58,635 nucleotides of DNA from a virus (Duplodnaviria > Caudoviricetes). Under the pieces are notes generated by a model, which saw only the letters and a list, made by a program, of their open reading frames with translations, was not told the DNA's origin and made no database searches. Each line of letters opens with the position of its first letter. The first letter of the stretch is position 1. Both the position numbers and the translations under genes were made by a program. This document shows, in pieces, positions 5,277 through 52,445 of this stretch. The stretch covers positions 1 through 58,635 of IMG/VR virus record IMGVR_UViG_3300030380_002200. One strand, written 5' to 3'.

Positions 5277-5292
5277 GTGTCCTTGAAGACAC
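5277..5292. repeat. 16-bp palindrome GTGTCYTYRARGACAC copy 1 (intergenic)
   Basis: GTGTCCTTGAAGACAC, 2 nt after the tail gene stop. Confidence 0.95.
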
Positions 5293-5307
5293 ACCAAAAG
5301 AACAGAT

Positions 5308-6120
5308 ATGCCTGTACCATTAGCTAATTACACCCTGACATACGACACGGACGCACGCATTCAAGGATGGCCTTCGTTCTACAGCTACGCGCCTGACTAT
5401 ATGGTCGGGATGAATAGTTTTTTCTATTCGTTTTCAGGAGGAAATTTGTATAGGCACAGCGTCAACCCCGTAAGAAACAACTTTTACGGTGTGCAGTACA
5501 ATAGCACCGTTACCACTCCATTCAACTCACAGCCCCTCGACAACAAGCTATACAAGACGTTGGCATTGCAGGGTGCGGAGGCTTGGGCCGCACAGATGGT
5601 AACGGATATTCAGACCTCGCTTGCTATGCCTGCCGACTTCTTTGAGGTTAAGGAACAGACGTTCTTTGCTTTTGTAAGAAACCAAGACGCTAACGTCAAC
5701 TTCAGTCTCCGTTCAGCACAGGGTATTGGTTTCAGCATCGGGATAAATCCAACCGTTCCCACTGCCGTAGTCGTGGAGTTTCAACAGGGCGTAAGTCTTA
5801 GCGGTATCAATGGAACGCCTGTAAGTGGAACCAACGTGGGCGATATGCTGTACTTTGGAACAGGAACGCCAACATTGGCGGGACAGATTACTGCAGTCAA
5901 TGTCAATCCGCAGGCGGGGATTAACGAGCTTGTCGTTGACACAACCGTTACAGGAGGTAATATGCCAACTCAACCGTCATACTTCTTGGTAGCTCGCAAC
6001 CAAATTGCTGAGTCGCACGGGGTGTTGGGACACTACGCTTTGACAACCCTTACGCACCCCGGTACAACACAGGGTGAGCTGTTCGCTGTGCAGTCTGATG
6101 TAATGAAAAGCTATCCCTGA
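5308..6120 (+). CDS. Tail protein resembling the C-terminal part of crAss-like stabilization proteins
   Basis: 270 aa; GWPSFYSY, NSFFYSFSGGNLYRH and RNNFYGVQY motifs; lies in the tail module. Confidence 0.6.
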   Translation: MPVPLANYTLTYDTDARIQGWPSFYSYAPDYMVGMNSFFYSFSGGNLYRHSVNPVRNNFYGVQYNSTVTTPFNSQPLDNKLYKTLALQGAEAWAAQMVTDIQTSLAMPADFFEVKEQTFFAFVRNQDANVNFSLRSAQGIGFSIGINPTVPTAVVVEFQQGVSLSGINGTPVSGTNVGDMLYFGTGTPTLAGQITAVNVNPQAGINELVVDTTVTGGNMPTQPSYFLVARNQIAESHGVLGHYALTTLTHPGTTQGELFAVQSDVMKSYP

Positions 6121-6128
6121 TAATTCAG

Positions 6129-6136
6129 TATCTTTG
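6129..6136 (+). promoter_or_regulatory. Bacteroidota sigma70-type -7 element (TATCTTTG)
   Basis: Matches TAnnTTTG, 5 nt before ATG 6142. Confidence 0.65.
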
Positions 6137-6141
6137 TGGGT

Positions 6142-6660
6142 ATGAGTGAAGAAACTCTACCAATTCAATTGATTGCAGACATTCCTCTTCGCAGGGGTGT
6201 TATGTGGGAGAAAATTGCGGAGTTTGAGAATCAACTCAAAGACATCGAGGGAGCCATGTCGCATACGGCAGGAGACCCTCAGTCTGAAGAAATGAAAAAG
6301 GTTTTTCCGCTGAAACAGCATATTGAAGGCGGCCTTTACACGAGGGAGATTCACATGCCCGCAGGCTCTTTGGTTATCAGCATGATTCATAGGCAACAGC
6401 ATCCTTCTTTTTTGTTGAAGGGCAAGGTTTCTTACCTAACTGATGAGGGCAAAGTAGTTACTATCGAAGCACCTCACAAAATCTTTACTCAGATAGGAAC
6501 TCAAAGAGTTCTGTACATCCACGAAGACACCGATTGGTGCTGCGTATACAAGACAGATGCACAGACTTTTGAAGAGGCGGAGGCTGACGTTTACACTAAC
6601 AATTTCTACGACCTCCCTGAGAGCGTAGTAAAAGAAATAAAACTACTATGGCAGGAGTAA
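6142..6660 (+). CDS. Cupin-like (double-stranded beta-helix) protein
   Basis: GLYTREIHMPAG...IHRQQHPSFLLKGKV pattern; start reassigned from GTG 6136 to ATG 6142. Confidence 0.55.
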   Translation: MSEETLPIQLIADIPLRRGVMWEKIAEFENQLKDIEGAMSHTAGDPQSEEMKKVFPLKQHIEGGLYTREIHMPAGSLVISMIHRQQHPSFLLKGKVSYLTDEGKVVTIEAPHKIFTQIGTQRVLYIHEDTDWCCVYKTDAQTFEEAEADVYTNNFYDLPESVVKEIKLLWQE

Positions 6661-9380: not shown

Positions 9381-12300
9381 ATGGACGAACTTCAAAAGCT
9401 ATATGACGCTCTGTCACGAGACGGTTACTACACCAAATCGTTTGAAGAGTTTCAAGTTCAGTACGAAGACCCCGCGTACAGAGATAAGGTCTTCGGAGTG
9501 GTATCAAGAGATGGCCTCTACACCAAGTCTCGTGATGAGTTTGACGTTAAGTACAGCTTAGTAAAAAAAAAAGACGATACGGCTTTACCATCGGACGATG
9601 GTTTGTCGGACTTGCAAGAGATTAACAACCTTGCTTTTGAAGTCAAGACAGACGTTGAGACCAAGCCTGAAGAGCTTCAAATTACCAATAAGGCAATTGA
9701 AACTTCGCAGGCTTTGGCATCTGTTTATCCCGAAGGCGTAGACCCTCAGCTCGTCGCTACAGGGGCGGACAGTCAGTACCTTATCCCAACTCTTTTTCCC
9801 ACAGAGGACGGAGGGTTTGAAACGATTGAGGTTCAGGACATCAACGACCCTAACGACCCCGCTGTGCTCCGAGCGAAAGAGCTTGGGGTGATACAGTTTT
9901 TGGGTGGTGAAGGCAATGAGGTAGATACCATTACTCGTGACCAAGTTTTGCAGGGCGACTTCCGTCGCTTGGCTCAGTTGCAGGGTGACGAGTTCGAAGG
10001 AACTTTGTTTGACCAAGAACGCGAGGCTGCAGAGTTTGACCCGTTTGAGAATGCCTTGACAGAAGTCAATGCAGAATTGATTGACGGCACGGAGGAGTAC
10101 GCAGTGCCCAAGCTAAACTACCTGTTTGGTGACTATGGCTTTACGTTTGAAGAGACAGGGGTAGGCGACGCATTGATTGTCACATCTCGTGACGGGAAAA
10201 AAGAGGAGATAGACTTAGACACCTTCTTGGAGATGAGGGATGAGGGTCAAGCTAAAAAGCTAGAAGCCTTCTTGAGAGACAACAAGTCAGACAACACGGC
10301 ACTGAACTCTATTGCAGGCCAACGAATCGTAGCCAACAACGAAGAGGAGATACTAAAGACGGTAGAGGTCTTCAATGAGCAGACCGAAAACTTTGCGTCT
10401 GATGTATCTGAGTTCACCAAAGATTATGCGGAGTTTGCTGTTGAGCTACAAAGGCTTGAAGGGTACAGCCGCGAATACATGAACGACAACCCTGAAGTAA
10501 AGGCTCAATATGAGCAGGCACTGCGGCAGCAGAAAGCCTACATGAGTCAATACGAGCAGCTTCTCAGCAAGGAGAAAGTATTTAAGGAGCGTGGTGCGCA
10601 GCTCGACAAGGCGGCAGGAGAGTATTACATGATGGAGGGAAAGCAGGGTGAGTTCATGACTACTGTCTTCAACAAGTTCATGTTGGGCGCGGCATCCAAG
10701 ACTGCGAAAGCTACGGCTAGAGGTGTTAGTCGTTTGACCTATGATGTTGCTGTAGGTGAAGAAGAAGAGTATGACTTGGTGGCCGCTAACGCTGCTCAGT
10801 ATGATGTACAGATTCCATCAGACATTGACACGGACAGGGGTCGTGCCTTGTACGTCAAGCAAAATCACCCTGATGTCTACGATAAAATCCTCGCCAAGGA
10901 CAAAGACCAATTTCTAAAATCTACTTTGTACGGGGGTGATAGGTTTAGAAACCCATTCTCACAGGTAGCTGCCAACACCGATACTGAACTCGGTATGGTC
11001 GATGCTATCGACAAGGGTGTCCGTGAGTTGATGACATCTGACAACACCACGGAGCAGTACGAGAAAATGCAGTCCGAAGGGTTTTGGGGCGGAGCAATCT
11101 TAGGATTGGCTGAGTCACTTCCCGCGATGCTCGGTGGAGCAGGCCCGATAGGATGGGCGCAACGTACAGCGCAGATGTATGCTCTGTCGTCAGAAGGGGT
11201 GTATGAGGAGATGGAAGAAAGTGCTGAGTTTGACGACGTAAGCGAGGACGAGAAGCGCAAAGTAGTAGTCCCCATTGGAATCGCAGTCGCAACACTCGAA
11301 GTCGCAGGATTCAGAAGTTTAATTTCCCAAAGAGGTTTGTTGAATGGCTTGGTAGCAAGAGCTATCGGAAAGGCTACGTCAAGCACTACAGCAAAATCTT
11401 TCGGTGAATTTATCAAGCAAGACGTAGAGAGCTTGATTGCTCGTGGGTTGCTTAAAATTACTGCGGGTGGTCTTGCGGAGTTTGAGACAGGCTTCGCTCA
11501 GGAGATAGCAGAGTCAGGCATCAAAGACATTTACAACTCTGTCAAAGAGAAGGAGATGTTCGAGACCCCTGATACTTTCAAGGAGTATTTCGTAGACGCA
11601 TTGTATGCAGGTGCGCAAGAGATGGTGGGTGGTTTTGTGATGGGAACTATTCCCGCAGCTGCGACTATGGCGCAAGGCAACAAGCTCCAAGAGATGTCTG
11701 ATGAGCAGTGGAATCTGTTCAAGGAAATCTCTAAAGACTCCAACTATAAAAAGATGTATCTCACCGAGCTGAAGCAAAAGGTTGCTTCAGGGGAAATGAC
11801 ATTGGAGCAAGCAAAGAAGGCTGAGGCTGAGTTGAACCAACTGCTCGGCGTTCTGCCTCAGATTGAGCAGGGCAAGATGCCTGTTGACTTTACTGAGGCG
11901 CAGCAGAAAGAAGTCGTTCAGCTTCTTATCGAACAGCAGAGACTTGAGTCAAAGAACGAAGGTCTTAGACCCGTACTCAGAAAGAGAAACGATGCTCGTA
12001 TCGCAGCTATTGATGCGAGGATTGAAGATATGATTGAGCAGAATGCTGCAGCACAGCAGGCTCAACAAGCCGAGGAGCAAGGCATTGCAGAGTTTACTGA
12101 AGAAGGCGTGTCCTCAAGGACACAGGAGGAAGAGGTGTCCGAAGATGTTATAGAGGAAGAGGCGGGTGATATTGAAGAGTTCTTTGGAGAAGAAACAGAG
12201 ACCACCGAAAGGGTTGGTGAGAACCTAAGCCTTAATAAAAAGGGCGACGTGTCCTTTACTCCTGACCAAAGAAGAGTTAGAGACCGAGTTGTAAGGACAG

Positions 12301-15300
12301 CTAAGTTAGGAGCGCGAGCTATCTCAAAGGTGTTGCCTGACGTGCGTATAGTGCTTCACGAAAGCAATGAGGAGTTCTTGCGCTTCACAGGACGTGATGG
12401 AAGGGCTGAGTACATCCCTGAAAAACGGAACTCCGAAGGTGAAGTTGTAAGTCCAATTATCCACGTCAACTTGTCGTCAGCTACTGCGTCAAGCGTACCT
12501 CACGAAATCTTCCACGCAGTATTCATCGAGAAGGTGAAGACTGATGCAAATGCAGCTAAGGCTGCCGAGACTATGATTATGTCGGTGCGTAAAACGTTGA
12601 AGGACGATTCAGCATTGGCAAAGCGTATTGATGACTTCGCGGCCAACTACGATGCCAACTTCCAAAACGAAGAGAGGTTGGCTGAGTTGGTTGGTATCCT
12701 GTCGTCGGAGTACCGCACCCTTGCCAAGCCCGCCAAGAATGCAGTGGTGGAGTTCCTTAAGAACATTGCACGTCGCTTTGGTATCGAGCTTGGTTCTGAC
12801 TTCGGAAAGAATGACGAGAGTGTGGTTGACTTGCTCAACACCATTGCACGCAAGACAAGCAAGGGTGAGATTATTGAAGAGTCTGACATCGCTCTGCTTG
12901 AACAGATTCCATACTCAGAGGGTGAGGTTGTAACGCCAACTGAAACTACAAGCAAGCCTCAGCCCCGACAGGACAAGGATGTGTTCAAGGGTGTTGACTT
13001 TGTAGAGGAAATACCTGTGGTATCTATGCAAGAGTTTGTGGAATCAGTGGGAGGCAGAGTTTTTGCCGTCACCTCTGATGCTACCAAGGTTGGGTTCGAC
13101 AGCAACAACGAGCGTGTTGATGGTGGCTTTGGATACACGGCATTCAAAGAAAACCTTGCAGGCAACATTGGATTCGCTTCGCTCGATACTCAGGTAGCAA
13201 AGAAGACGATGGCTAAGATTGCCAAGAACTTTAACGCAGGTGATGTGATTGGTGTGATGGTAATGGTTCAAAACCCGTCAGCTACCATTGGCAACTACTA
13301 CGGTGGTAAGTACCTAGGACGCGCTCTGAAGCAGCTTCAGGAAGCTGATGGGGCTGCGTATCAACTGATGGTTGATGAGGTCTCTAAGCTCCTGCAAACC
13401 AATAAGACAATTCGAAATGCTCTCAAGAAAAAACAAACAGAGCAGAAGCTGATTGACTTGTTGCGTGACCCGTCAAAGTTTACGGAGAACGAGTTTGCTC
13501 AAGAGTGGATTGCAGACACCACATTTGATGTGCGTCGTGAGATGCTAAAGGCGATGATTATTTCATCTCCTGAAACACGAACAACTATCTCTACACCGAT
13601 GTACAAGACCATGCTGAAGGACGCAGGCTTCAACCTGCAGGACTTCCTGATGGAGTACGGTGATGTGAGATTGATTGGTGAGAATAACCTCAAGGAAGAC
13701 AACGGTGGCTTCTTGGTGGGTGGATTTAAGATGACCGTGCCTAAGTCCAAAGATGTAGCTGCGTTGATGGTTGAGGTGGAAACCAAGGGCTTTACCCATC
13801 CGCAGTTTAACGGAAAGCTACCTAGCACAGGTGAGCACTTCTTGTTCGATGGGCTGTACCCCATCCAAGAAAACCTTCAGGAGTTTGCAGTTCCGGAAAC
13901 ACGCATTGGAAAGGAGTTGCAAGAAGAGGCCGACAAAAGAGTCAGGAAGCTCGCTAAGAAGAAAGGTGTTGGTGTATTCGAAAGAAAGTTTACCGACAAG
14001 GATTCTGACAACTACGTTCCCGCAAGTAAAAGAGGATACAGAAACCTCTCTACTACGGCTAAGATTATCTTCAAGAAAGACAACCAAGACCTTCTTGTTG
14101 AGGCCACCCCACAGCTTGCTTCAGGTGTGGCGCGAGGCATGGGCTTGAAGACAAAGGGAGCTATCCCCGCAAGCACTGAATTTAGCCCTGCCCGTCGTCA
14201 GCAGAAGTCGATGAATGAAATCATCGGAGAGGCACGAGACGCAAACTTCCGTGACGCTACGATTCGTGACTACCTGATTCGCGTTCGCAAGATGAAGGCC
14301 GAGGTGGTTGATGCTGCGCTTGAGGTATCTCGCGATGCTTTTGAGAAGCTGCCTGATGCATTTAAGAATATGCAGGGTGGTGTCAAAGCAGGAGAAGCCT
14401 TGTACAAGAAGGTCGAGGACTTCCGCAAGAAGTTGGAGAGAAGGAACGCTCGCAGCACGTACAAGACCGACGCTGAAATCAAGGCTATGGTCGTTGAGTT
14501 TGCACAGGATTTGCGTTCCACCTATGATACCAATGCTCAGATTCAAGAGAAGGTAGATAAGTACAAGGCGAAACTTGAGCGCAACAACAAGCGCAGAAAG
14601 ACACCCATGTCTTCTACTGAGATGCGTAGCAAGGTGGCTGAGTTTAAGCGTGACCTCGTAGCAAAGCGTGACGCAAAGCGTGATGAGGTCAACGGAAAGA
14701 TTACTCAGTTCGAAGCAGTAGAAAGACGTAAGAACAGCAGACGTGTCAAGCCATTAACTGAGCAAGAGATTATGACAGCTATGATTGAGTTCATGGAGTC
14801 ACAGCCTGAGTTCAAACAGGAGGGCGATACGTTTGTGGAGAAGGGTGTTACCAAAGTCCGCAAAGGACTTTCCACTCAGCAAGCTCAACTGATTGCTGCG
14901 TTGCAAAAGAACGTGGGCATCAGGCCCACTCAAGACATGGCGGCTAAGGTTCGTCGTGCTCGCTTTACCGTAAGAGAAAGACTGAAGGGTCAGAGAGACA
15001 TTCAGTCCGTGAAACGTGCGATGAGAAACTTCATCCGCCAAGCGTTGCCTACTGAGCTTTACACGAAGAAGGAAGTGTTGTCTTTGCTGCGCAAGATTGA
15101 GGTAGCCAACAGAGACAATCTTGAAAACCTTCAGGGCGAGATTGAGGAGTTCGTTATCAGCAAGAACGTACAGAGTCTCAAGAGAAGCATCAGCAAGATT
15201 CTCAACGCTGACTATGAGACACTGCAGAGCGGAAGGCGCAAGGGTGTCAAGGTTGACCTCGCCACACGGGAGCAGATAGAAAAGATTAGAGATTCTATCC

Positions 15301-18147: not shown

Positions 18148-18163
18148 GTGTCCTCAAGGACAC
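18148..18163. repeat. 16-bp palindrome copy 3 (at the convergence of the two transcription arms)
   Basis: GTGTCCTCAAGGACAC, 2 nt after the plus-strand TAA; contains the TGA of the last minus-strand ORF. Confidence 0.95.
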
Positions 18164-19546: not shown

Positions 19547-19779
19547 ATTCTGTCTACATCCATGAGGAATAAGTCGCCTGTTGGTTTGTGAACTTTCCTA
19601 ATAGCTCTGTATATCTCTTGCGATTTCCTCTTTACTCCTCTTCTTTCTGCTGTAGTAGAGTCAGTTCCAAGAGCGCAATACATTGCAGCGTCGATACGTA
19701 ACAGCTCATCAATCTTCTTTTTATCAGTCCATGTCTTGAACTGAACAATCTTGTCGATGTCGTTGTTATTATAGTCCAT
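19543..19779 (-). CDS. Hypothetical protein
   Basis: 78 aa, overlap-coupled within the operon. Confidence 0.65.
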   Translation of the reverse strand: MDYNNNDIDKIVQFKTWTDKKKIDELLRIDAAMYCALGTDSTTAERRGVKRKSQEIYRAIRKVHKPTGDLFLMDVDRI

Positions 19780-20845: not shown

Positions 20846-22327
20846 TCATTCCCTGTTCAATTTCTTGAAGTGGTTTACGGTGAAGTCCCGCTTCTTGGTG
20901 ACGGCCTTGTAGATGTCCTTCTCAATGCCACCACGAGAGAACACCCAATACACATCGGACTCAAGCCTCTCCTTCGTAGTCATCCTATCTCGTGACTGCC
21001 AATAGCTTGTCGCAGAGAAGTCTATGTTGTAGTACACCAAGGCATCAGCCTCTCGTAAGGATATACCCTCACGCCCACTTACAATCTGAAGGGCTATGTT
21101 CTTGTCCGTGCCTGTGAACTTATCGAGGTCGGTAACGAGCGTGTCCTTGAAGACACGCTTGAGTGCCTCAAGTTCTGCCTTGAACTTGTAGAAGATACCA
21201 ATCTTCTTGCCCTCGAACTTCTCCTTGATGAAGGTAGCCTTGCTCAAGTCAAGCACCGTAGCCTTACCCGACTCGAACTTGATAGTTCCTGAGTATAGCT
21301 GATGGAGCTTCATCATGAGCTTGACGGGTGTGTCGGCCAAGATGACCTCGTCCTTACCCTCCACCACCAAGTCCTTCTTGAGCCTAGTGGCAAGGCTGTA
21401 TGTCATGTCTGACATCTCCACTTGCAGTACGTGCTCTCGTGTATCGACCTTGAACCCCGCCTCCTTTTGTGAGAAGTTGATGGTGAACGGTCTCATAGCT
21501 TCGAGGATGGTATCTAATCCCTTGGAGTAGTCGTTAATCATCAGCCCGTTTATCTTCTTCTGAGTGACCCGCGCATACTTGTCGCAGAATCGGTAGAAGT
21601 TTTTGAACTCAGCAAACGGATTGTTGGGAATGCCGTACACCTGATGATACATCTGACAGTAGGACTCAGGTGTCGGTGTCCCCGACAGCAGGATAACCTT
21701 TGGGCTATAACGCTTCACTATATCCCTCACATCCTTGGCCCTCTTGCTTGGCTTGGGGAACGCTCCGATGCTGTGTGCCTCGTCAAGGATAACGATGTCC
21801 CACTTCACGTCAGGAAGTTTATGCATCGACTCGTAGTTGATAACGAACAGGGAGTATGATGGGCATAGCTTGTTGCTGTCTGCAGTGATAGAAGAGATGG
21901 CTTTCTTCTTCGTTATGAACAAGACGTTGTCCACTTTCATCTTGTCGCAGATACCGAGACTTGTCAGCGTCTTACCTGTACGTACCTCCATAGCTAAGTA
22001 TAGGAAGCCCGTGTCCTCAAGGACACGGACTCCCTTTTCAATTATAGCTTCCTGATAGTCTCGGAACTCTATCTCTGATGATTTCTTCATCTGCTCTGCA
22101 TAGTATTCAAGGCTATTAGATATGCGCTCTCGGACAAGTGGGTCAACGTTGCGGTACTTATTAACCTTCACCTTGGTCGCGGCTCGGCCACGTCCTACGG
22201 TACGCTGAACCTTTGCATTGATGACTCGGTCTAGACGTTCAACGCTACGCAACATATCCTTATCGCTGTAGTAAGGCTTGCGTGAGAACACCTCCTTGTC
22301 ACCCCACATGAAGGTGTCAGCCTTCAT
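20846..22327 (-). CDS. Superfamily 2 (SNF2-like) helicase
   Basis: FRDYQ Q-motif, MEVRTGKT Walker A, LDEAH Walker B, LSGTP motif III, GREGISL, QSRDR motif VI. Confidence 0.85.
   Translation of the reverse strand: MKADTFMWGDKEVFSRKPYYSDKDMLRSVERLDRVINAKVQRTVGRGRAATKVKVNKYRNVDPLVRERISNSLEYYAEQMKKSSEIEFRDYQEAIIEKGVRVLEDTGFLYLAMEVRTGKTLTSLGICDKMKVDNVLFITKKKAISSITADSNKLCPSYSLFVINYESMHKLPDVKWDIVILDEAHSIGAFPKPSKRAKDVRDIVKRYSPKVILLSGTPTPESYCQMYHQVYGIPNNPFAEFKNFYRFCDKYARVTQKKINGLMINDYSKGLDTILEAMRPFTINFSQKEAGFKVDTREHVLQVEMSDMTYSLATRLKKDLVVEGKDEVILADTPVKLMMKLHQLYSGTIKFESGKATVLDLSKATFIKEKFEGKKIGIFYKFKAELEALKRVFKDTLVTDLDKFTGTDKNIALQIVSGREGISLREADALVYYNIDFSATSYWQSRDRMTTKERLESDVYWVFSRGGIEKDIYKAVTKKRDFTVNHFKKLNRE
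21141..21156. repeat. 16-bp palindrome copy 4 (inside the helicase CDS)
   Basis: GTGTCCTTGAAGACAC, encoding VFKDT on the minus strand. Confidence 0.95.
22011..22026. repeat. 16-bp palindrome copy 5 (inside the helicase CDS)
   Basis: GTGTCCTCAAGGACAC, encoding VLEDT on the minus strand. Confidence 0.95.
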
Positions 22328-26373: not shown

Positions 26374-26996
26374 GCCTTTTCCATTTCAGCGGTCAATCCC
26401 TTCTTGACTGACGCAGTCACCTTGTACTTGCGCTCTGCCATAGACAGGATGTCTTCGATGGTCTTGTCCTTGTTCTCCTTGATAAAAGCTACAATCTTCT
26501 TGTAGTTCTCATCGTTCACCTTGAGTGTCTTTAAGGACACGGGTTCAGGCTTGGACTCAGGAAGGTCTTCACCTGCATAGATGTAGTGGCCGAGTCCAAA
26601 CATTGCAAGGTTCTTGGTCAGGCAACGCATGATGGTCTTGTTGATGTCGAACATCGTTGCCTTGTTGACCTGCTTCTCTCCGTATCGAGTAGAGAATGTA
26701 TACGGTGCATCCATCATGGCGTTGTTCGCTCCGTCCATCACAGGCAACCACATCTCAAGCGTCTCACCGTCGATGGTTACGTTGGTCATGGTCATGTAGC
26801 CAAGTGCGGGGTCGAAGAACCAAGGCTTGTCAGTTTGCGGGTCGCGCAACACCTCATAGGATGCATCAGGATATTGCTTCTTGACTTCGGCCCAAGCCCA
26901 AGCCCATGAGAGGTATTTAAGGTTGCTTTTCTTTTCAACCTTGTCATTGACGTTGATTGCGCTCAACGTTTCGAATACAGATTTTTTCTGTGCCAT
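26370..26996 (-). CDS. sak: Sak (Rad52-like, DUF1071) single-strand annealing protein
   Basis: YLSWAWAW, MWLPVMD, DINKTIMRCLTKNLAMFGLGHYIYAGEDLP. Confidence 0.85.
   Translation of the reverse strand: MAQKKSVFETLSAINVNDKVEKKSNLKYLSWAWAWAEVKKQYPDASYEVLRDPQTDKPWFFDPALGYMTMTNVTIDGETLEMWLPVMDGANNAMMDAPYTFSTRYGEKQVNKATMFDINKTIMRCLTKNLAMFGLGHYIYAGEDLPESKPEPVSLKTLKVNDENYKKIVAFIKENKDKTIEDILSMAERKYKVTASVKKGLTAEMEKA
26525..26540. repeat. 16-bp palindrome copy 6 (inside the sak CDS)
   Basis: GTGTCTTTAAGGACAC, encoding VSLKT on the minus strand. Confidence 0.9.
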
Positions 26997-27947: not shown

Positions 27948-27963
27948 GTGTCCTTGAGGACAC
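27948..27963. repeat. 16-bp palindrome copy 7 (intergenic)
   Basis: GTGTCCTTGAGGACAC. Confidence 0.95.
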
Positions 27964-29121: not shown

Positions 29122-29137
29122 GTGTCCTCAAGGACAC
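29122..29137. repeat. 16-bp palindrome copy 8 (intergenic)
   Basis: GTGTCCTCAAGGACAC. Confidence 0.95.
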
Positions 29138-30627: not shown

Positions 30628-30643
30628 GTGTCCTTGAAGACAC
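30628..30643. repeat. 16-bp palindrome copy 9 (intergenic, stem extended by GGGG/CCCC flanks)
   Basis: GTGTCCTTGAAGACAC, between the promoter at 30670 and the GATase start. Confidence 0.95.
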
Positions 30644-31460: not shown

Positions 31461-31476
31461 GTGTCCTTGAGGACAC
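31461..31476. repeat. 16-bp palindrome copy 10 (intergenic)
   Basis: GTGTCCTTGAGGACAC. Confidence 0.95.
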
Positions 31477-32190: not shown

Positions 32191-32241
32191 TCCGTTTCGA
32201 CCTTTCGGTCTCATCAGCATCGGTACACACCGATGGACGGA
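32191..32241 (-). ncRNA. Hammerhead ribozyme, type III
   Basis: Minus strand UCCGUC^CAUCGGU-GUGU-ACCGAUG CUGAUGA GACC-GAAA-GGUC GAA ACGGA: complete catalytic core and three perfect stems; predicted cleavage between 32236 and 32235. Confidence 0.93.
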
Positions 32242-32247
32242 GGGAGC

Positions 32248-32263
32248 GTGTCCTTGAGGACAC
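32248..32263. repeat. 16-bp palindrome copy 11 (intergenic, stem extended by GGGAG/CTCCC)
   Basis: GTGTCCTTGAGGACAC, 6 nt 5' of the hammerhead on the minus strand. Confidence 0.95.
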
Positions 32264-32277
32264 GACTCCCGTTCGCC

Positions 32278-33209: not shown

Positions 33210-33225
33210 GTGTCCTTGAAGACAC
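33210..33225. repeat. 16-bp palindrome copy 12 (intergenic)
   Basis: GTGTCCTTGAAGACAC, between the stop at 33229 and the amidoligase start. Confidence 0.95.
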
Positions 33226-33228
33226 GGG

Positions 33229-33897
33229 TTAGAGTTGGTGGTTAGAGTCAGCCGCACCAATCAGGTTCTGCATGGTTGCAATGGCCGAGAGAATCTCCGC
33301 TCGGCTGTTGGTGGTGTGCTGTCCGCCATTGGCATCGAGCCTCCATGAGACGTTGGATGCTCCGTCAACCTTCATGGTGAAGGTTGAGATGGTATCAACC
33401 TGCTCGGTGCGCGTCTCCACGTCTGTCTCCTCGACAGCCTGTTCGATGGCTTCAGTCACCTGCTCCTCGGTTGCGTCTTCAGGCAACTCGGACAGGTCAA
33501 TGTCACGACCGAACTTGTCGAGGTTGGCGATGGTACGCATCGCTTGGTCTCCTGCTTCGTCGCACTTGCGGTTGAACGCGGCAATGACTCGTGGGTCAAG
33601 TGAGCCACAGCGACGAACCTTGTGGAAGTACGACTTGCCCCAACCGAAGACCTTCTTGGAGAAATCCTCTGTTGTCCATGACAAGCCTTGCTCATCGAAG
33701 GCCAACTTGCCTTCGTCGCTGTTGAACCATGCGTATGCGTTCACAACGTGAACCGAGAGAGCCATGCTGTGCTCGAACTTGCGCTTCTGTGCGTTGTCTA
33801 CGTTGCGCTGTCCGCGACGGATGTCGGTGAGGTTCAACGCTGTCTTCACTTGTGGGATGTTGAGGAAATCCCGTTCCATTTGATTGAGAATGCTCAT
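33229..33897 (-). CDS. First gene of the early arm; hypothetical, with a possible HTH-like segment and an acidic linker
   Basis: 222 aa; TTEDFSKKVFGWGKSYFHKVRRCG is helix-turn-helix-like; E/D-rich middle region. Confidence 0.65.
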   Translation of the reverse strand: MSILNQMERDFLNIPQVKTALNLTDIRRGQRNVDNAQKRKFEHSMALSVHVVNAYAWFNSDEGKLAFDEQGLSWTTEDFSKKVFGWGKSYFHKVRRCGSLDPRVIAAFNRKCDEAGDQAMRTIANLDKFGRDIDLSELPEDATEEQVTEAIEQAVEETDVETRTEQVDTISTFTMKVDGASNVSWRLDANGGQHTTNSRAEILSAIATMQNLIGAADSNHQL

Positions 33898-33899: not shown

Positions 33900-34428
33900 T
33901 ACTGAGTTTTTGAGGTTTAATTTGCTGATTTTCAGCGAGTTAGAGTCATTTTGGCGGGCATTTGGCTACCGCCGATGGTGCAATATACGACTATTTCTTG
34001 TCTAATTCGACACAGCAGGCACACTTTCTTCGTTTTCCCTGCCATTCGTTTGGGGTTGGGGAGGACGGGACAGGGGCTGTGCCTTCCCTCTCTCCATGTG
34101 AATGGGGGAAGGTCTGAACGGGGGAAGGTCAGCGTGTCTTCAAGGACACAGGCACAGGTTCGGTTTGGTCACAGGAGCGGAGCGGAGCAGGACGGGAGGA
34201 TGGGCGCGGACGGACGGCAGACCGACAGCGCACGACAGCGGGACGGGAGCGGGAGCAGGGACGGCAGGCCCACCACAGCAGGACGGCCACAGCAAAACGG
34301 CAAAAAATCAGGACAGCACCGAGCGGGACAGACCCCCCCTATGCGCGGCAGGTCGGTTTCGGACAGCGGGCGGCGGCGCGTACGGCCTACATAACCCAAA
34401 CACTGAAAACACCTACTGTAAAAAATTG
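33900..34428. other. Non-coding divergence region between the arms (candidate genome terminus/packaging region)
   Basis: GC-rich, T-poor plus strand with about 20 ACRG(C/G) repeats, a G-tract cluster at 34052..34076 and a GGGGGAAGGTC direct repeat (34104, 34120). Confidence 0.55.
34134..34149. repeat. 16-bp palindrome copy 13
   Basis: GTGTCTTCAAGGACAC. Confidence 0.95.
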
Positions 34429-35108: not shown

Positions 35109-36707
35109 ATGCAAAATTCAGGATTCACTCCCAAAAAATTGGAGTTCAATGACGAAGCACGAGAAAAGCTCGTCGAAGGAATCAATCAAATCGCGAACGC
35201 TGTAAGCAGCACCCTCGGCCCTGCGGGTCAAACAGTCATCATCGAATCGCCTGAACACACGCACGGCATCACCGTAACGAAGGACGGTGTTACTGTAGCT
35301 AAGGCCATCGACCTTCTCGACCCCACTGAGAACCTTGCGGTACGTATCATGAAGGAAGCGGCTGACCGTACTGCTACATCAGCGGGTGACGGGACGACCA
35401 CATCTATCGTGTTGGCTCGCGCCCTTGTCGAGGCGGGGTACAAGCACATACCTGACGGTGAGCGCACTGACGTGTTACGCGACTTGCGGGTAGAAACTGA
35501 GAAGGTGATTGCTTCCTTGAAGAGGCAGGCTCGCGCTGTGACGAAGGGGAGGCTCAAGGACGTAGCTACCATCTCCTCAAACAACGACAGCAAGATTGGC
35601 GACATCATCGCCAAGGTGTATAAGGACGTAGGAAAGAACGGCATCGTAACTGTTGACCGCTCTATGACGAGCGAGACATACTACGAGACAACCGACGGCA
35701 TCAAGGTTGACCGTGGGTTTAGCTCACCGCTGTTCATCAACGACCACAAGAAAGATGAGTGTGTCCTTGAGGACACACATATCCTTGTATCCGATGCTGA
35801 GATTAGCAACGTCTTGCAGATTGAGAATGTACTCAAGCCTATCATCGCTGAGAACAAGAAGCTACTGATTATCGCACCGTGCTCTGCGAACGTGGTGAAT
35901 ACCATCGCGGCCAACGTCATGAAGCGCGATATGAAGATTTGTATTATCCAACCACCGAACTTTGGATACAAGCAGCACGAGCTGATGCAGGACATCGCTT
36001 TGAGTGTGGGTGCTACATACTTCTCTGAGAAGACAGGCGACGACCTGAGCCTCATGCAGTATACTGACCTCGGTCGCGCAGAGCGCGTCATCGTGGGTCG
36101 TGACTCGTCGATTATCCTGAAGGATAAGGACAGCGGCAACCAAGAGTTGATTGACGAGCGCGTTATGCAGCTCAACGCTTCGCTTGCCATCACTCAGCGC
36201 AAGGCTGACAAAGACTTCATCCTTGAGCGCATCGCATCGCTGACAGGTGGCATCGGTGTTATATACGCAGGCGGAAATACTGACCTTGAGCAGAAGGAGC
36301 TATACGACCGTATCGACGATGCGGTGTGTGCGGTACGGTCTGCGCTTGAGGAGGGCATCCTACCCGGCGGTGGTGTAGCATTGTACAACGAGGTGATGAA
36401 GCGATACCACAACCCTCAGACTGTGGCTGAACAAATTTTCGCGGACGCACTTCGTGCGCCATTTGAGCAAATTGTCGAGAACGCAGGTCACTACAACGTA
36501 GACATTTGGGCAGGCAATGCTGACGAGTCACATAGCTATGGCTTCAACGTCAAGACTGAAAAGTATGGTGACATGTATGAGATGGGTGTGATTGACCCAC
36601 TCAAGGTTACGCGGTCTGCTCTTGAGAACGCAGTAAGTGTTGCCACAACTATTCTGTCTACCAATGCCATCATTACTATGGCACGGACATACGAGCAGAA
36701 GTCGTGA
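35109..36707 (+). CDS. groEL: Phage chaperonin GroEL
   Basis: TLGP, VTKDGVTVAK, AGDGTTT, ERIASLTGGIGVI, DDAVCAVRSALEEGILPGGG, GVIDPLKVTRSAL. Confidence 0.97.
   Translation: MQNSGFTPKKLEFNDEAREKLVEGINQIANAVSSTLGPAGQTVIIESPEHTHGITVTKDGVTVAKAIDLLDPTENLAVRIMKEAADRTATSAGDGTTTSIVLARALVEAGYKHIPDGERTDVLRDLRVETEKVIASLKRQARAVTKGRLKDVATISSNNDSKIGDIIAKVYKDVGKNGIVTVDRSMTSETYYETTDGIKVDRGFSSPLFINDHKKDECVLEDTHILVSDAEISNVLQIENVLKPIIAENKKLLIIAPCSANVVNTIAANVMKRDMKICIIQPPNFGYKQHELMQDIALSVGATYFSEKTGDDLSLMQYTDLGRAERVIVGRDSSIILKDKDSGNQELIDERVMQLNASLAITQRKADKDFILERIASLTGGIGVIYAGGNTDLEQKELYDRIDDAVCAVRSALEEGILPGGGVALYNEVMKRYHNPQTVAEQIFADALRAPFEQIVENAGHYNVDIWAGNADESHSYGFNVKTEKYGDMYEMGVIDPLKVTRSALENAVSVATTILSTNAIITMARTYEQKS
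35761..35776. repeat. 16-bp palindrome copy 14 (inside groEL)
   Basis: GTGTCCTTGAGGACAC, encoding CVLEDT. Confidence 0.95.
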
Positions 36708-45122: not shown

Positions 45123-47349
45123 CAACTTGCATCGTGTCATACATGACTACATCCCCAAGCATGTGCTTTCTACTAAGAACAAAGCAAAGACTTGGAAGTA
45201 CGGCTATGACCCAAAGTATGACCTTGTAATCATATCGAAAGACGGAACTCTCGGTGAGGTATACGAGATTCAGAATCTAAAGATTGGACTTCCGAAACCT
45301 CCCAAGGCGTGTCCTCAAAGACACGCTAAGAGAAGTGAGCAGTATTGGGAGAGAGAAGAAATCCCTGCTCACCTGAATAAAATCCAATCCATCTTCCAAT
45401 GGAACGAGATGACCTCGGACTTCAAGTCGAGGTACGTTGACTATATCGAGCGTGAGTTCGACAGGAGGGACGATGGCTATTGGTTTATGAACGATGGCAA
45501 GCCAACCTATCTTACAGGGGCGCACTACATGTACTTGCAATGGACAAGCATTGATGTAGGATACCCTGATTTTCGCGAGGCCAATCGTTTGCTGTACATC
45601 TTTTGGGAAGCGTGCAAGGCTGACCGAAGGAGCTTTGGCATGGTGTACCTGAAGATTCGTCGTTCAGGCTTTTCATTTATGTCGTCGTCAGAGTGTGTAA
45701 ACACCGCGACACTCGCCAAGGATTCTCGTGTAGGCATCCTTTCCAAGACGGGTACAGATGCCAAGAAGATGTTTACCGACAAGGTTGTTCCAATCAACAG
45801 CCGACTTCCATTCTTCTTCAAGCCTATCATGGACGGTATGGACAAGCCTAAGACAGAGCTTGCATACCGAGTGCCTGCGGCTAAGATTACTAAGAAGAAC
45901 ATGTTTGATATTGAGGAGGAACAGATTGAAGGTCTCGACACCACAATTGATTGGAAGAATACTGACGACAATTCTTACGACGGTGAGAAGCTACAGCTTC
46001 TTGTTCATGATGAGAGCGGCAAGTGGCTCAAGCCAAATAGCATTCTCAACAATTGGCGTGTCACCAAGACGTGCTTACGGTTAGGTAGCAAGATTATTGG
46101 CAAGTGCATGATGGGGTCAACCTCCAATGCATTGTCTAAAGGTGGAGGAAACTTCAAGGACTTGTACCGAGACTCTGACGTGCTCAAGAGAAACAAGAAC
46201 GGACAGACCAAGAGCGGGATGTACTCCCTTTTCATTCCGATGGAGTGGAACATGGAAGGGTTTATCGACCGCTACGGCATGCCCGTGTTTAGAACGCCGC
46301 ACAGTGCTGTCAAAGGTATCGACGGAGAAGACATCCATCAGGGGGCTGTAGATTATTGGCAGGCTGAAGTGGACTCGCTCAAGTCAGATGCTGATGCTCT
46401 TAACGAATACTACAGGCAGTTTCCGCGAACAGAATCACACGCCTTCAGAGATGAAAGCAAGCAGTCCATCTTCAACCTCACACGTATCTATCAGCAGATA
46501 GACTACAACGATAGCTTGATTATCAATCAGCACATTACACAGGGTAGCTTTAGATGGAAGGACGGTATCAAAGACACATCGGTTATTTTTTCTCCTGATA
46601 AATCAGGACGATTCAAGGTGTCATGGGTTCCCCAAAGTGGGATGCAGAACAGAATTTCTCAGAGAAACGGAATCAAGTATCCGGACAATGAGCACCTTGG
46701 CGCATTTGGCTGTGACTCGTATGACATTTCAGGCGTAGTGGGTGGGGGAGGCTCTAACGGTGCGCTTCATGGATTGACTAAGTTTAATATGGACGATGCA
46801 CCGAGCAATGAGTTCTTTTTAGAATATGTCGCAAGACCACAGACAGCAGAGTTGTTTTTTGAGGATGTTCTTATGGCCTGTGTGTTTTATGGGATGCCTA
46901 TCCTTGTAGAGAATAACAAGCCTAGACTGTTGTATCATTTCAAGAACCGAGGCTATCGAGGATTCTGTATGAACAGACCTGATAAAACATATAATAAACT
47001 ATCCAAAACGGAGAGAGAACTTGGGGGAATCCCAAACTCTTCTGAAGACGTGAAGCAGGCGCACGCTTCAGCTATTGAGTCCTACATTGAAAAGTATGTA
47101 GGCATAGATATGGATGGCTCGTTTAGAGATACAGACGAGATGGGTTCTATGCTATTTACACGAACCCTTGAAGATTGGGCGAAGTTTGACATTAGCAACA
47201 GAACCAAATTTGACGCAAGTATTAGTTCGGGATTGGCTATCATGGCTTGCCAAAAGCACCTGTATCAGCCCGAAAAGAAGACAAATAAATTAAGCCTTAC
47301 CTTTGCAAGGTATAATAACAAGGGGGCTTACAGTGAACTGATTCGATGA
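45100..47349 (+). CDS. terL: Terminase large subunit
   Basis: LKIRRSGFS Walker A variant, LVHDESGK Walker B, MGSTSN motif C, FGCDSYD nuclease motif, LVENNK, FDASISSGLA; precedes the portal. Confidence 0.9.
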   Translation: MQNEGLNNNLHRVIHDYIPKHVLSTKNKAKTWKYGYDPKYDLVIISKDGTLGEVYEIQNLKIGLPKPPKACPQRHAKRSEQYWEREEIPAHLNKIQSIFQWNEMTSDFKSRYVDYIEREFDRRDDGYWFMNDGKPTYLTGAHYMYLQWTSIDVGYPDFREANRLLYIFWEACKADRRSFGMVYLKIRRSGFSFMSSSECVNTATLAKDSRVGILSKTGTDAKKMFTDKVVPINSRLPFFFKPIMDGMDKPKTELAYRVPAAKITKKNMFDIEEEQIEGLDTTIDWKNTDDNSYDGEKLQLLVHDESGKWLKPNSILNNWRVTKTCLRLGSKIIGKCMMGSTSNALSKGGGNFKDLYRDSDVLKRNKNGQTKSGMYSLFIPMEWNMEGFIDRYGMPVFRTPHSAVKGIDGEDIHQGAVDYWQAEVDSLKSDADALNEYYRQFPRTESHAFRDESKQSIFNLTRIYQQIDYNDSLIINQHITQGSFRWKDGIKDTSVIFSPDKSGRFKVSWVPQSGMQNRISQRNGIKYPDNEHLGAFGCDSYDISGVVGGGGSNGALHGLTKFNMDDAPSNEFFLEYVARPQTAELFFEDVLMACVFYGMPILVENNKPRLLYHFKNRGYRGFCMNRPDKTYNKLSKTERELGGIPNSSEDVKQAHASAIESYIEKYVGIDMDGSFRDTDEMGSMLFTRTLEDWAKFDISNRTKFDASISSGLAIMACQKHLYQPEKKTNKLSLTFARYNNKGAYSELIR
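45309..45324. repeat. 16-bp palindrome copy 15 (inside terL)
   Basis: GTGTCCTCAAAGACAC, encoding CPQRH. Confidence 0.9.
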
Positions 47350-49781: not shown

Positions 49782-49820
49782 GTCTAATTTATTGTCATTA
49801 CTTTTGTAAAAATCTAATCT

Positions 49821-50924
49821 ATGGAACTTAAGGTACGCGAAGTGACGGGCGAAGAAAAGTCACAACAAGAAATCGAGCAGTCACTTCTTGACAAGCATGC
49901 GCAGGAAGTAAATAATGAAACACCTCAAGCTGAGGAGCCTCAGCAAGAGACCCCACCCGTTCAGGAGGAAGCTCCTGTTCAGGAATCTAAGTCAGAGCTT
50001 TCTGACGACGACGTTCTTTCATATATCAAAAACAGGTACGACAAGCAGATTGACTCTGTAGACCAACTCTTTGCCGAGCGCGAAGAGGCTGAGGAACTTC
50101 CGGAAGATGTCGCTGCGTACTTAAAGTACAAGAAGGATACAGGAAGAGGGTTTAACGACTACGTAAGACTCAACAAGGATTACGATGAAGTTGCCCCCGA
50201 CCAACTCCTTCGTGAGTATTTGGTTGCCACCGAAAAGGGATTAGATGCAGAAGACATCGACACCTTGATGGAGGCTTATTCTTTTGACGAGGAGTTGGAT
50301 GACGAATCGACAATTAAGAAGACCAAGCTAAACAAGAAAAAAGCTATTGCGAAGGCCAAAGACTACTTTGAGTCAGAGAAAGAAAAATACGGAGCACCCC
50401 TTGAGTCGAGCGGGAGTTCCCTTTCTAAGGATGACCAAGATAAGTTAGAGGCGTATAAGCAATATATCCAAGAGTCAAACTCTTTTGAGGAGTCAATGAA
50501 GAAGCGACAGGAAGTCTTTCTTCAGCAGACCAACGAAGTTTTCGGAAGTGAGTTCAAGGGCTTTGAGTTCACGCTTGACGAAGACAAGACGGTCACCTTC
50601 TCTCCGGGTGATGCTACTGAGTTAAAGAAGGCACAGTCTGATGCCACTAACTTCCTTAAGAAGTATGTGGACGAAAACGGTGTCATCAAAGACGCAGCAG
50701 GTTACCATCGAGCTTTGGCTATCGCTATGAATCCCGAAAAGTTTGCTCGGTTCTTTTATGAACAGGGCAAATCGTTTCAGGCTGACAGTACGATGCGCAA
50801 GATGAAGAATACTGACATGTCTATGCGCAACACACCGGAAGTCGTGAAGAAGGGAGGCATGCAAATAAAGTCCTTGAACAGTGACTCAGGTCGAGGACTT
50901 AAGATTAGGAGTCGAAAAAACTAA
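49821..50924 (+). CDS. Putative capsid scaffolding protein
   Basis: Very acidic and helical; between portal and capsid genes; -7 element TACTTTTG at 49799. Confidence 0.65.
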   Translation: MELKVREVTGEEKSQQEIEQSLLDKHAQEVNNETPQAEEPQQETPPVQEEAPVQESKSELSDDDVLSYIKNRYDKQIDSVDQLFAEREEAEELPEDVAAYLKYKKDTGRGFNDYVRLNKDYDEVAPDQLLREYLVATEKGLDAEDIDTLMEAYSFDEELDDESTIKKTKLNKKKAIAKAKDYFESEKEKYGAPLESSGSSLSKDDQDKLEAYKQYIQESNSFEESMKKRQEVFLQQTNEVFGSEFKGFEFTLDEDKTVTFSPGDATELKKAQSDATNFLKKYVDENGVIKDAAGYHRALAIAMNPEKFARFFYEQGKSFQADSTMRKMKNTDMSMRNTPEVVKKGGMQIKSLNSDSGRGLKIRSRKN

Positions 50925-50937
50925 AAACTAAGAAAAT

Positions 50938-52383
50938 ATGGCTTTAACAGCTTTTGATTTGGGACTGCAGCCATCAGCGCAGCAGGTTCCGCTTAGTACG
51001 AACTATATCACGAACTTCAACTTCTTGAATCAGTATCTCCCTGATACTTACGAGAAGGAGTTCGAGAGATATGGCAACCGTACTATCTCTTCTTTCCTCC
51101 GCATGGTTGGTGCGGAAATGCCTTCTAACTCTGACCTGATTAAGTGGGCAGAGCAGGGAAGACTTCACATTAAGTACACTAAGTGTGGTACTGCTGCTAA
51201 TAATGGAGACAGTGAGGCTATTTTCCAAGTGAACGACACAGGTATTCCTGCATTTACTGCTACCAACGCTATTGCCGTAAGAGTTGGACAAACTCTTTTC
51301 ATTCAAAAGAATGATGGCTCTGCCTCTAACAAGGCTATTGTTACAGCGGTAGACGAGACTCAAAACCAATTTACTTGTGCTTTCTACGAAGCAGGCGGCT
51401 TCGGTGGTGTTTCAGGTGGTGGTTTGGCTAACACGAACTTCACTGTGTTTATCTATGGTTCGGAGTTCAAGAAGGGTGAAGCAGGTATGCAAGGCTCTCT
51501 TGAGGCTGATGATACCATCCTTTCTAACAACCCAATCATCCTGAAGGACACCTACTCGGTGAACGGTTCTGACATGGCTCAGATTGGATGGGTAGAGGTG
51601 ACTACAGAAAACGGTGCTTCAGGATACCTGTGGTACTTGAAGTCTGAGCACGAAACTCGCCTTCGTTTCGATGACTACCTCGAAACTGCTATGGTAGAGG
51701 CTGTGCCTGCCGTTGCTCCTGCCGTTGCTGTTGCAGGACAGAAAAACGCACAAGAGGAAGGCTTCATGGGTTCTGAAGGTGTGTTCCACGCAGTGAATAC
51801 AAGAGGTAACGTCTATGCAGGCGGTAACCCAACTGTACTCGCTGACTTCGACACCATCATTCAGCGTCTTGACAAGCAGGGTTCTATCGAGGAGAACGTT
51901 CTCTTCATCAACCGTCAGTTCTCGTTTGACATTGACGATATGTTGGCTGCTCAAAACTCTTACGGAGCGGGTGGTACTTCATTCGGCCTGTTCGACAACG
52001 ACGAGGAGATGGCCTTGAACCTTGGCTTCTCAGGCTTCCGTAGAGGTTACGACTTCTACAAGACTGATTGGAAATACTTGAACGACCCAACTTTCCGTGG
52101 CGGTTTGTCTACTGTGGCAGGCAGCGGAACGATTAACGGTCTTCTTGTTCCTGCAGGTTCTACTACCGTGTACGACCAAATCCTTGGTAAGAACGCGAAG
52201 CGTCCATTCTTGCACGTTCGTTACAGAGCGTCTGAGACTGAAGACCGTCGCTACAAGACTTGGATTACAGGTTCTGCCGGAGGTGCAATGAACACTGACG
52301 TTGACAAGATGCAGGTTAACTACCTGTCTGAAAGAGCTGTTTGCGTGATGGGCGCGAACAACTTCGTCATCTTCAATGCGTAA
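50938..52383 (+). CDS. Major capsid protein
   Basis: 481 aa; YLPDTYEKEFERYGNR, WAEQGRLH, LNLGFSGFRRGYDFYK; follows the scaffold gene and ends at a terminator hairpin. Confidence 0.85.
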   Translation: MALTAFDLGLQPSAQQVPLSTNYITNFNFLNQYLPDTYEKEFERYGNRTISSFLRMVGAEMPSNSDLIKWAEQGRLHIKYTKCGTAANNGDSEAIFQVNDTGIPAFTATNAIAVRVGQTLFIQKNDGSASNKAIVTAVDETQNQFTCAFYEAGGFGGVSGGGLANTNFTVFIYGSEFKKGEAGMQGSLEADDTILSNNPIILKDTYSVNGSDMAQIGWVEVTTENGASGYLWYLKSEHETRLRFDDYLETAMVEAVPAVAPAVAVAGQKNAQEEGFMGSEGVFHAVNTRGNVYAGGNPTVLADFDTIIQRLDKQGSIEENVLFINRQFSFDIDDMLAAQNSYGAGGTSFGLFDNDEEMALNLGFSGFRRGYDFYKTDWKYLNDPTFRGGLSTVAGSGTINGLLVPAGSTTVYDQILGKNAKRPFLHVRYRASETEDRRYKTWITGSAGGAMNTDVDKMQVNYLSERAVCVMGANNFVIFNA

Positions 52384-52398
52384 GATTGCGTAACACGT

Positions 52399-52445
52399 AA
52401 AGGGGAGGCGTGTCCTCAAGGACACGCTTCCCGCTTTACTTTTTT
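52399..52445 (+). terminator. Terminator-like hairpin built around 16-bp palindrome copy 16 (52410..52425)
   Basis: GGGAGGC-GTGTCCTCAAGGACAC-GCTTCCC followed by TTTACTTTTTT. Confidence 0.75.

Follow-up and report, generated by a model that had tools for sequence, protein, structure and literature searches.

Gene content of the window and sites of the palindrome

The window analysed here is the entire IMG/VR record IMGVR_UViG_3300030380_002200 (58.6 kb, 98% complete, labelled G000), a phage genome in which a 16-bp palindrome, GTGTCYTYRARGACAC, recurs at 16 sites. Our subject is this palindrome together with the first gene of the leftward early operon (33229..33897, minus strand), which encodes a 222-aa protein, called gpX below, that we propose as its reader. 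The structural genes of the phage are closest to those of the uncultured podovirus MW202828.1 (69% nucleotide identity from terL to capsid), with a more distant likeness to Flavobacterium 'elemo', Cellulophaga, Maribacter and Tenacibaculum phages. Searches with Pfam and PHROGs identified a primase-helicase, an SNF2 helicase, a Sak annealing protein, an exonuclease, GroEL/ES, an amidase and crAss-type muzzle domains, and found no DNA polymerase, RNA polymerase or integrase among the window proteins. There are two giant virion proteins, one of more than 1757 aa (1-5274) and one of 2869 aa (9381-17990) that carries a HEIFH zincin-like motif, and many genes are preceded by Bacteroidota-type promoter boxes of the form TAnnTTTG. 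A hairpin promoter for a virion RNA polymerase, of the N4- or crAss-like kind, was considered as an explanation of the motif and rejected, as the giant proteins have no DFDxD-type motif and host-type TAnnTTTG promoters are present. In the crAss-like phage phi14:2, early transcripts are reported to lack a shared upstream motif (bioRxiv 10.1101/2020.03.07.982082).

An exact scan of the window returned 16 matches to the palindrome, at every one of the coordinates given in a preliminary description of this DNA, and none in 100 dinucleotide-preserving shuffles. Tolerating up to three mismatches brought in just four weak sites (6972, 13123, 50680 and 58444) where 3.1 are expected by chance, and because the near-match scan adds only such a chance-level number, the motif family is sharp. 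Its half-sites, GTGTCY, are inverted, have their centres 11 bp apart and flank a 4-bp TYRA centre. In correction of the preliminary description, the individual sites of the window are mostly imperfect palindromes: TCAA, TTGA or TTAA stands at the centre, and each half has either C or T at position 6, independently of the other (9 sites C/G, 7 mixed, none T/A).

Six of the copies lie inside genes and cover all three codon phases, reproducing the peptides reported before. They are found in the 2869-aa giant gene (12108..12123, peptide VSSRT, codon offset 0), with a site at the same place in four relatives (G001, G002, G004 and G005); twice in the SNF2-type helicase gene (21141..21156, VFKDT, offset 1; and 22011..22026, VLEDT, offset 1), the second position being kept in G001, G002 and G004; in the Sak gene (26525..26540, VSLKT, offset 0); in groEL (35761..35776, CVLEDT, offset 1), at a position kept in G001, G004 and G005; and at +209 of terL (45309..45324, CPQRH, offset 2), in a variable linker, where it is conserved at the nucleotide level in relatives.

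The remaining ten copies occupy short spacers, 2-45 nt past a stop codon and about 15-20 nt ahead of the next start, or regions of convergent or divergent transcription. Copy 5277..5292 lies between genes, with the stop of the gene for the 1757-aa virion protein 2 nt before it and the next start 15 nt after it; 18148..18163 lies in the spacer between plus-strand genes ending at 17990 and minus-strand genes ending at 18239. Copy 27948..27963 is intergenic, about 90 nt upstream of a small DnaA_C-like helix-turn-helix (HTH) gene (27567-27857); 29122..29137, also intergenic, directly follows a tRNA-like fold (~29138-29215, minus strand) and stands 16 nt before the start at 29105. The copy at 30628..30643, in the leader of gene 29499-30605, has its stem lengthened by GC pairs and follows, at a distance of 26 nt, a promoter box of the Bacteroidota type (TTTG...TATCTTTG, 30670, minus strand); 31461..31476 is intergenic, 8 nt past a stop and 15 nt ahead of a start. 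At 32248..32263 the palindrome is the tip of a 12-bp hairpin immediately ahead of a putative hammerhead ribozyme. Two copies bracket gpX: 33210..33225, 3 nt past its stop and 17 nt ahead of the next start (33192), and 34134..34149, in a divergent control region 237 nt upstream of its start. The last copy, 52410..52425, tips the intrinsic terminator after the major capsid gene, a hairpin of -33.4 kcal/mol with a 19-bp stem, followed by the T-run TTTACTTTTTT.

Distribution in relatives and selection at the nucleotide level

Five near-complete relatives were picked via TerL (74-82% identity). The motif is found in four of them, in 12-17 copies each, mostly as GTGTCTTYRAAGACAC; the remaining one, G003, whose genome is complete and has terminal repeats, has no copy. 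The motif is not specific to this genome and is common to a large clade, whose motif-bearing members span 35% to 47% G+C. Several sites keep their positions between genomes, namely those within the coding sequences of terL, groEL, the helicase and the giant gene, the one behind the capsid gene and one where the giant gene ends. In G001 and G011, palindromes of the form GGACC-N4-GGTCC were considered as a second motif and rejected, being collagen-like coding repeats.

In terL, across 25 loci with the peptide C[LP]QRH, the motif codons TGT-CTT/CCT-CAA-AGA-CAC are used exactly in 24 and other codons in one; the flanking residues of the linker vary between genomes, and motif-free relatives carry unrelated peptides there. 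Because the codons are fixed in 24 of the 25 loci while neighbouring residues vary, selection on the nucleic acid, as put forward in the preliminary description, is supported by the sequences, and the terL codons together with the shuffles rule out chance or a coding artefact as the origin of the motif.

In some motif-free relatives we observe what look like decayed copies, in the post-capsid terminator of G013 and in terL of G003 and G007 (GTGTCTTAGGGCAC, TGTTATAAAAGAGAC and CCGCAAAGACAT), which suggest that the system may have been lost there rather than never present. The motif-free fragments G006-G008, G012, G013 and G015-G017 leave the early region uncovered and are uninformative on gpX.

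Co-occurrence with gpX and variation of the palindrome

When 73 genes of the window were compared with six relatives, gpX alone, among genes whose size and type are plausible, was shared by all five motif-bearing genomes and missing from G003, where two profile hidden Markov models found no match to it at E ≤ 1. Conversely, all 79 IMG/VR loci retrieved by a gpX alignment (L108-L186) carry GTGTC-N6-GACAC, in 1-12 copies each, while five cultured relatives (elemoF, Panino, phi19:3, phi38:1 and Gundel_1) have neither motif nor gpX. In most of the 79 loci, a site is found 205-304 nt away on the upstream side of gpX; the site just past its stop is at the same position in 53 of 76.

Where gpX diverges, the palindrome does so as well. 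In MW202828, whose gpX is 25% identical and altered in its HTH segment, GTGTCGTTAACGACAC, a perfect palindrome, is present in 14 copies, all of them in the early region and inside a stretch of 11.5 kb. A different palindrome, first seen in the fragment G007, was traced to two complete genomes, G018 and G019, which have 15 and 16 copies of GTCTGTTNNAACAGAC, no GTGTC-type site, and each a divergent gpX homologue; for G018, a type 2 phage, the site is given as GTCTGTTCGAACAGAC. In place of the window's palindrome, sister lineages with divergent gpX thus have GTCTGTTSGAACAGAC, GTCCG-N6-CGGAC or GTGTCGTTAACGACAC. G020 combines six GTCCG-N6-CGGAC sites with a further gpX variant. The natural specificity variants comprise GTGTC, GTCTG and GTCCG arms and a G/C form. 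The layout of G018 matches that of the window, with one site 270 nt upstream of gpX and one right after its stop, and at the junction ahead of a conserved gene (MCVII...) it has its own palindrome where the window lineage has GTGTC.... The same layout was observed in the sister phages G018, G019, G020 and G007 (loci L327-L352), with the palindrome AGTCTGTTSGAACAGACT (15-16 per genome) or GTCCG-N6-CGGAC (6). Thus, the motif co-occurs with gpX, and the sequence of the palindrome changes together with it.

The preliminary description had recommended a search of relatives for their own palindromes and a co-varying gene, and had listed gpX first among several candidate binders; it is the sole one whose presence tracks the motif. 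Of the others, those at 19769-20290, 27567-27857 and 36992-37444 are present also in the motif-free G003, and that at 22317-22682 is private to this genome. Covariation of the C or T at position 6 with particular gpX residues was looked for and gave no clear rule outside the G000/L108 group and MW202828. Three single proteins from among the distant gpX relatives, searched in IMG/VR, retrieved no loci.

Predicted structure of gpX

The gpX family comprises 299 clusters at 50% identity. Its AlphaFold2 model (mean pLDDT 87) has a helix at residues 76-84, a 3-residue turn and a helix at 88-98, followed by an acidic linker and a small beta/alpha domain; the predicted segment 76-98 is HTH-like (KVFGWGKSYFHKVRR), and it is here that the family-invariant residues cluster (V83, F84, G85, K88, S89, F91 and K93). 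Structural alignment of the model with VIA-align gave weak matches only, under the tool's trust bar, among them DNA-binding proteins of the KorB/ParB kind: 1r71, KorB with operator DNA (Z 5.3, root-mean-square deviation (rmsd) 4.1, 102 residues aligned), 1vz0, Spo0J (Z 5.2, rmsd 3.4, 101 aligned), and 8qa8 (Z 5.1). A search of BFVD returned unnamed relatives only, and in the ESM Atlas the nearest named clusters were DUF3102 (0.92) and DUF6192 (0.91), with low shared counts.

As a homodimer, gpX is modelled with an ipSAE of 0.73, against 0.01 for the best of three controls, with a contact agreement between runs of at least 88% and a pLDDT of at least 85. Of 30 proteins solved as pairs of one chain, 20 reach the ipSAE mark applied, as does 1 of 23 solved as single chains; since we used our own alignment, these counts are approximate. 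Residues 3-72 and 170-216 make up the predicted interface, in which helix 88-98 takes no part and stays free.

Terminators and hammerhead ribozymes at the sites

The preliminary description had missed that terminator hairpins, and hairpins next to hammerhead ribozymes, have the motif at their tip. In the window, a putative type III hammerhead lies at 32191..32241 (minus strand), with the full core GUC / CUGAUGA / GAAAC and three stems; against RF00008 it scores 32.5 bits (E 6e-4), where the gathering score is 48.5. Folding of 32186-32275 gives a minimum-energy structure that combines the palindrome-tipped hairpin with the three-stem hammerhead junction (z -5.5), and the predicted cleavage site is 12 nt past the palindrome. 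The 79 gpX loci contain 118 hammerhead cores with a stem II, 0-4 per locus, and each of those inspected in full has a strong hairpin ahead of it. A palindrome-tipped hairpin stands 25-31 nt upstream of 77 of the 118, and in 6 the palindrome itself serves as stem III, while 35 have an unrelated GC hairpin at the same place. These ribozymes appear to cut the polycistronic early RNA between genes; literature searches on hammerheads in phages returned nothing specific.

The motif-free relatives keep the post-capsid terminator with unrelated tips. A run of five T within 2-12 nt follows only 12 of the 343 early-operon sites in the 79 loci, and in the window the sites other than 52410 have no T-run. 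In the window, two ordinary terminator-promoter pairs (53240-53275 and 55915-55950; GC hairpin, T-run, TATCTTTG) are built with no palindrome, and the phage can therefore terminate transcription without the motif.

Proposed function and alternative explanations

We propose, at roughly even confidence, that the 16-mer acts as an operator in double-stranded DNA and that the early protein gpX, as a homodimer, reads it through its HTH-like segment. The preliminary description had envisaged a dimeric protein of either phage or host as the reader; a dimeric phage protein is the likely one. The dimer would dock on the two GTGTCY half-sites, whose spacing of 11 bp between centres would suit a dimer with two recognition helices. 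Bound gpX would regulate its own gene, bracketed by sites about 240 nt upstream and just past the stop, and would limit or time transcription by blocking initiation or elongation, in the way that stoperators and KorB operators do. In this scheme the operator would have been built into hairpins that the transcripts already need, namely intrinsic terminators and the hairpins preceding hammerhead cleavage.

Control of transcription by occupancy is suggested because the sites bracket gpX, fill the early junctions and have promoter boxes at a fixed spacing. They are found at nearly every junction of the early operon, with a few fixed sites in or after late and replication genes. A TAnnTTTG box occurs within 60 nt upstream of 36 of the 343 early-operon sites, against 112 of 3850 random positions, and in 22 of these 36 the spacing is 26-29 nt, the site at 30628 being the case in the window. 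We infer the binding by gpX, the preference for DNA over RNA as the target and the regulatory outcome from these patterns. For the marking of the whole genome for self-recognition or protection, as imagined in the preliminary description, we found no evidence.

Several observations weigh against this proposal. On the protein side, gpX has no match to a Pfam, PHROG or PDB-sequence family, with Pfam also empty for 29 aligned and 32 distant relatives; Foldseek found no match in the PDB to the gpX model at E ≤ 0.001; the likeness to the KorB/ParB DNA-binding domain is weak (Z 5.1-5.3, under the tool's trust bar of about 8); and the gpX of G004 is missing about 50 residues at its N terminus, which in the model contribute to the dimer interface. 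The co-occurrence of motif and gene is confounded by relatedness, with just one close complete genome (G003) having neither. On the side of the sites, the sense-strand centre in the 343 early-operon sites is TCAA in 247, TTGA in 47, TTAA in 33 and TCGA in 7; a symmetric dimer on duplex DNA gives no account of this orientation bias of type 1. A hammerhead core follows 96 of the 343, with the palindrome closing stem III in some, several sites are terminator tips, and the motif is the tip of the post-capsid terminator in every motif-bearing genome. Finally, the fixed copies inside late genes are not accounted for in detail by the model.

The hammerhead and terminator contexts are as expected of an RNA element, and a role at the level of RNA is the main rival. 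Here the 16-mer would be an RNA element, a 6-bp hairpin with a UYRA loop that marks or protects mRNA ends (the 3' end after termination or cleavage, or a 5' leader) and is read by an RNA-binding factor, possibly gpX itself; we regard this as unlikely. It would account for the centre bias, the tips of the post-capsid terminators, the hairpins and stems III at the hammerheads and the fold of 32186-32275, and it agrees with the joint change of positions 6 and 11 between genomes (C-G, T-A, G-C). However, unrelated hairpins serve hammerheads and terminators equally, as seen at 35 of the 118 ribozymes and in the motif-free post-capsid terminators, and an RNA hairpin role therefore cannot account for the conservation of the 16-mer. 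The arms, which would form the stem, are invariant, whereas the centre, which would form the loop, differs between lineages, the opposite of what is usual in RNA-protein recognition. At the mixed C/T sites, G.U is not favoured over C.A on the sense strand (23 vs 18; 6 vs 7 in a hand count). Complementarity of the flanks, out of six positions, reaches 3.6 at hammerhead sites and 2.4 at T-run sites, against 1.55 at random positions, and is absent at 337 other intergenic (1.69) and 64 in-gene sites (1.91), so that the stem is not extended at 401 of 540 sites. In one locus (L172) the centre is found in both orientations ahead of hammerheads, that is, flipped within one genome in the same context; the sites of types 1b and 2 are mostly perfect palindromes with no polarity; and the in-gene copies of groEL and the helicase are kept in opposite orientation. 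On these sequence patterns, specific reading of the motif on duplex DNA is most likely.

A variant that joins both levels, and which we find doubtful, holds that the palindrome is read twice: dimeric gpX would read it in the DNA duplex, and it would also be read at the tips of RNA hairpins that set mRNA ends, with the reader-site pair diversifying like an immunity system into at least four specificities in sister phages.

Improbable in our view is a parS- or centromere-like, genome-organising array on which gpX loads to bridge, compact or segregate the phage DNA. The distribution of about 16 palindromes of 16 bp throughout the genome, with some at conserved places within genes, would fit such an array, as would the predicted dimer of gpX and its weak fold similarity, over about 100 residues, to Spo0J/ParB and KorB. 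This structural match is under the trust bar, though, Pfam found neither a ParB N-terminal CTPase domain nor a ParA-like partner among 75 open reading frames (ORFs) of the window, and the clustering of the sites at early-operon junctions, with 14 of 14 in 11.5 kb in MW202828, is better matched by gene control.

More improbable still is that the sites are boundary or recombination signals of exchangeable early-gene cassettes, used by gpX or by the Sak/exonuclease pair. In T4-type phages, promoter-stem-loop cassettes offer a comparison, and the sites do flank the most variable genes, the ORFs at 28630-31775 having no counterpart in six relatives; in MW202828 a repeat extends to stop codon, 3 nt, motif and shared leader; and a few gpX family members have weak, below-threshold matches to the integrase-associated rve (0.0016) and DUF3701 (2.4e-4) families. 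This reading leaves the copies inside terL, groEL, the helicase and the giant gene and the fixed-distance sites around gpX unaccounted for, gpX has no recognisable catalytic domain, and 16 bp are short for homologous exchange.

That the motif is the site of a host factor, or a host-type repeat copied by the phage, is very improbable: phages of widely differing G+C share it, but it changes along with the phage's own gpX, and the matches listed from a scan of bacterial genomes (one per species, 185,579 species), which amount to at least 120 stretches where 277 are expected by chance on our own estimate, are nearly all single copies in unrelated phyla, about the level of chance. By these matches the motif is not a host repeat; among the matches listed, an interspersed pattern of many copies per chromosome, like that of repetitive extragenic palindromic elements (REP) or miniature inverted-repeat transposable elements (MITE), was not seen, and only two contigs, from metagenome-assembled genomes (MAGs) of Cytophagales and Flavobacteriaceae, have multiple copies, one of them phage-sized at 56 kb. 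The former is WTJX01000555.1 (L220/L249; 56,458 bp), with at least five copies, and the latter a 32-kb contig (L272) with two; their binning hints weakly at the range of hosts that the clade infects.

Comparison with known systems and significance

Multi-copy operators of regulators from mobile elements are already known, and the proposed gpX operator has two close counterparts. Cluster A mycobacteriophages carry more than 20 copies of a stoperator, at promoters and in short intergenic spaces. A phage HTH protein binds these sites, which are proposed to halt transcription at initiation as well as during elongation (PMC9283540). Like the L5 gp71-type stoperators, the window has many copies of one short site throughout its genome, here about 16, and the placement in short spacers recurs in 10 of the 16 window sites and in the 343 early-operon sites. 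Stoperators are, however, asymmetric 13-mers bound in one orientation by a monomer through two domains, whereas the site described here is an inverted repeat with a predicted dimer as its reader. On orientation relative to transcription the picture is mixed: the centre is biased in type 1 (247:47), and the sites of types 1b and 2 are for the most part perfect palindromes. Furthermore, gpX has no sequence relation to L5 gp71-type repressors in the Pfam, PHROG and PDB comparisons, the window shows no integrase or other sign of lysogeny, and some of its copies are inside genes.

The plasmid RK2 has 12 OB operators. They are palindromic, lie at promoters or far away from them, and are bound by the dimeric HTH global repressor KorB (PMC11790492). 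A palindromic multi-copy site of 13-16 bp is thus common to both systems, and structures of KorB with its operator rank with the best structural matches of gpX, weak as these are. In contrast to KorB and ParB, gpX and its 29 aligned and 32 distant relatives have no N-terminal CTP-binding domain recognisable by Pfam, no KorA/IncC-like partner was found by Pfam among the 75 window ORFs, the site sequences are unrelated, and RK2 is a plasmid where we deal with a lytic-looking phage.

For the RNA-level role, the nearest comparison is with phage T7, in which intercistronic RNase III hairpins and intrinsic terminators are junction hairpins that define or stabilise the 3' ends of phage mRNAs. The same job would be done here by terminators and hairpin-preceded hammerheads. 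The T7 hairpins are conserved in shape and not in a 16-nt sequence, and they need no phage-specific reader. As far as our searches show, the gpX family, its site, the specificity variants and the fusion of the site with terminator and ribozyme hairpins are not found in the literature searched, supplements aside, nor do five variants of the 16-mer occur there.

Should gpX bind these sites, the two would form a compact regulator-operator system that acts genome-wide in a clade of aquatic Bacteroidota podophages, both abundant and uncultured, about whose gene control almost nothing is known. Its natural specificity variants would be a ready-made series for working out a recognition code and might provide orthogonal repressor-operator pairs for Bacteroidota genetics. 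The association with hammerheads may be a natural case of a role for these ribozymes in bacteria and phages, the cutting of early transcripts just past a protective hairpin. Were the palindrome indeed read twice, one short sequence would couple a phage regulator to the processing of nearly every early message by ribozymes or terminators, and if reader-site pairs diversify like immunity systems, co-infecting relatives could control their own genomes without cross-talk.

Additional features of the window

Domains of the Crassvirus muzzle protein were found at 5308-6120 (PF25729, 6e-11) and at 58227-58634 (PF25731, 1.4e-5, below threshold), and, like the giant virion proteins, they sit in a 58-kb podophage that otherwise resembles elemo and Cellulophaga phages. 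The tRNA-like fold at ~29138-29215, directly upstream of the palindrome at 29122, has a 6-bp acceptor-like stem and a T-arm GGGGG-UUCGAUU-CCCCC; it is not called by ARAGORN and matches Rfam solely as a tmRNA 3' end (E 2.5e-4), and T-arm-like pieces similarly follow palindromes in L172. Between gpX and a tRNA-Arg gene, 34040-34370 is strongly G-rich, with short GGGAC/GGAGC-like repeats among which the palindrome at 34134 lies; comparable C/G-skewed repeats surround the upstream site in G001 and G002, and the stretch may serve as an origin or as a control region of an unusual kind. At 35001-35022, just upstream of the groEL promoter box, there is a tandem (TAC)7-like run.

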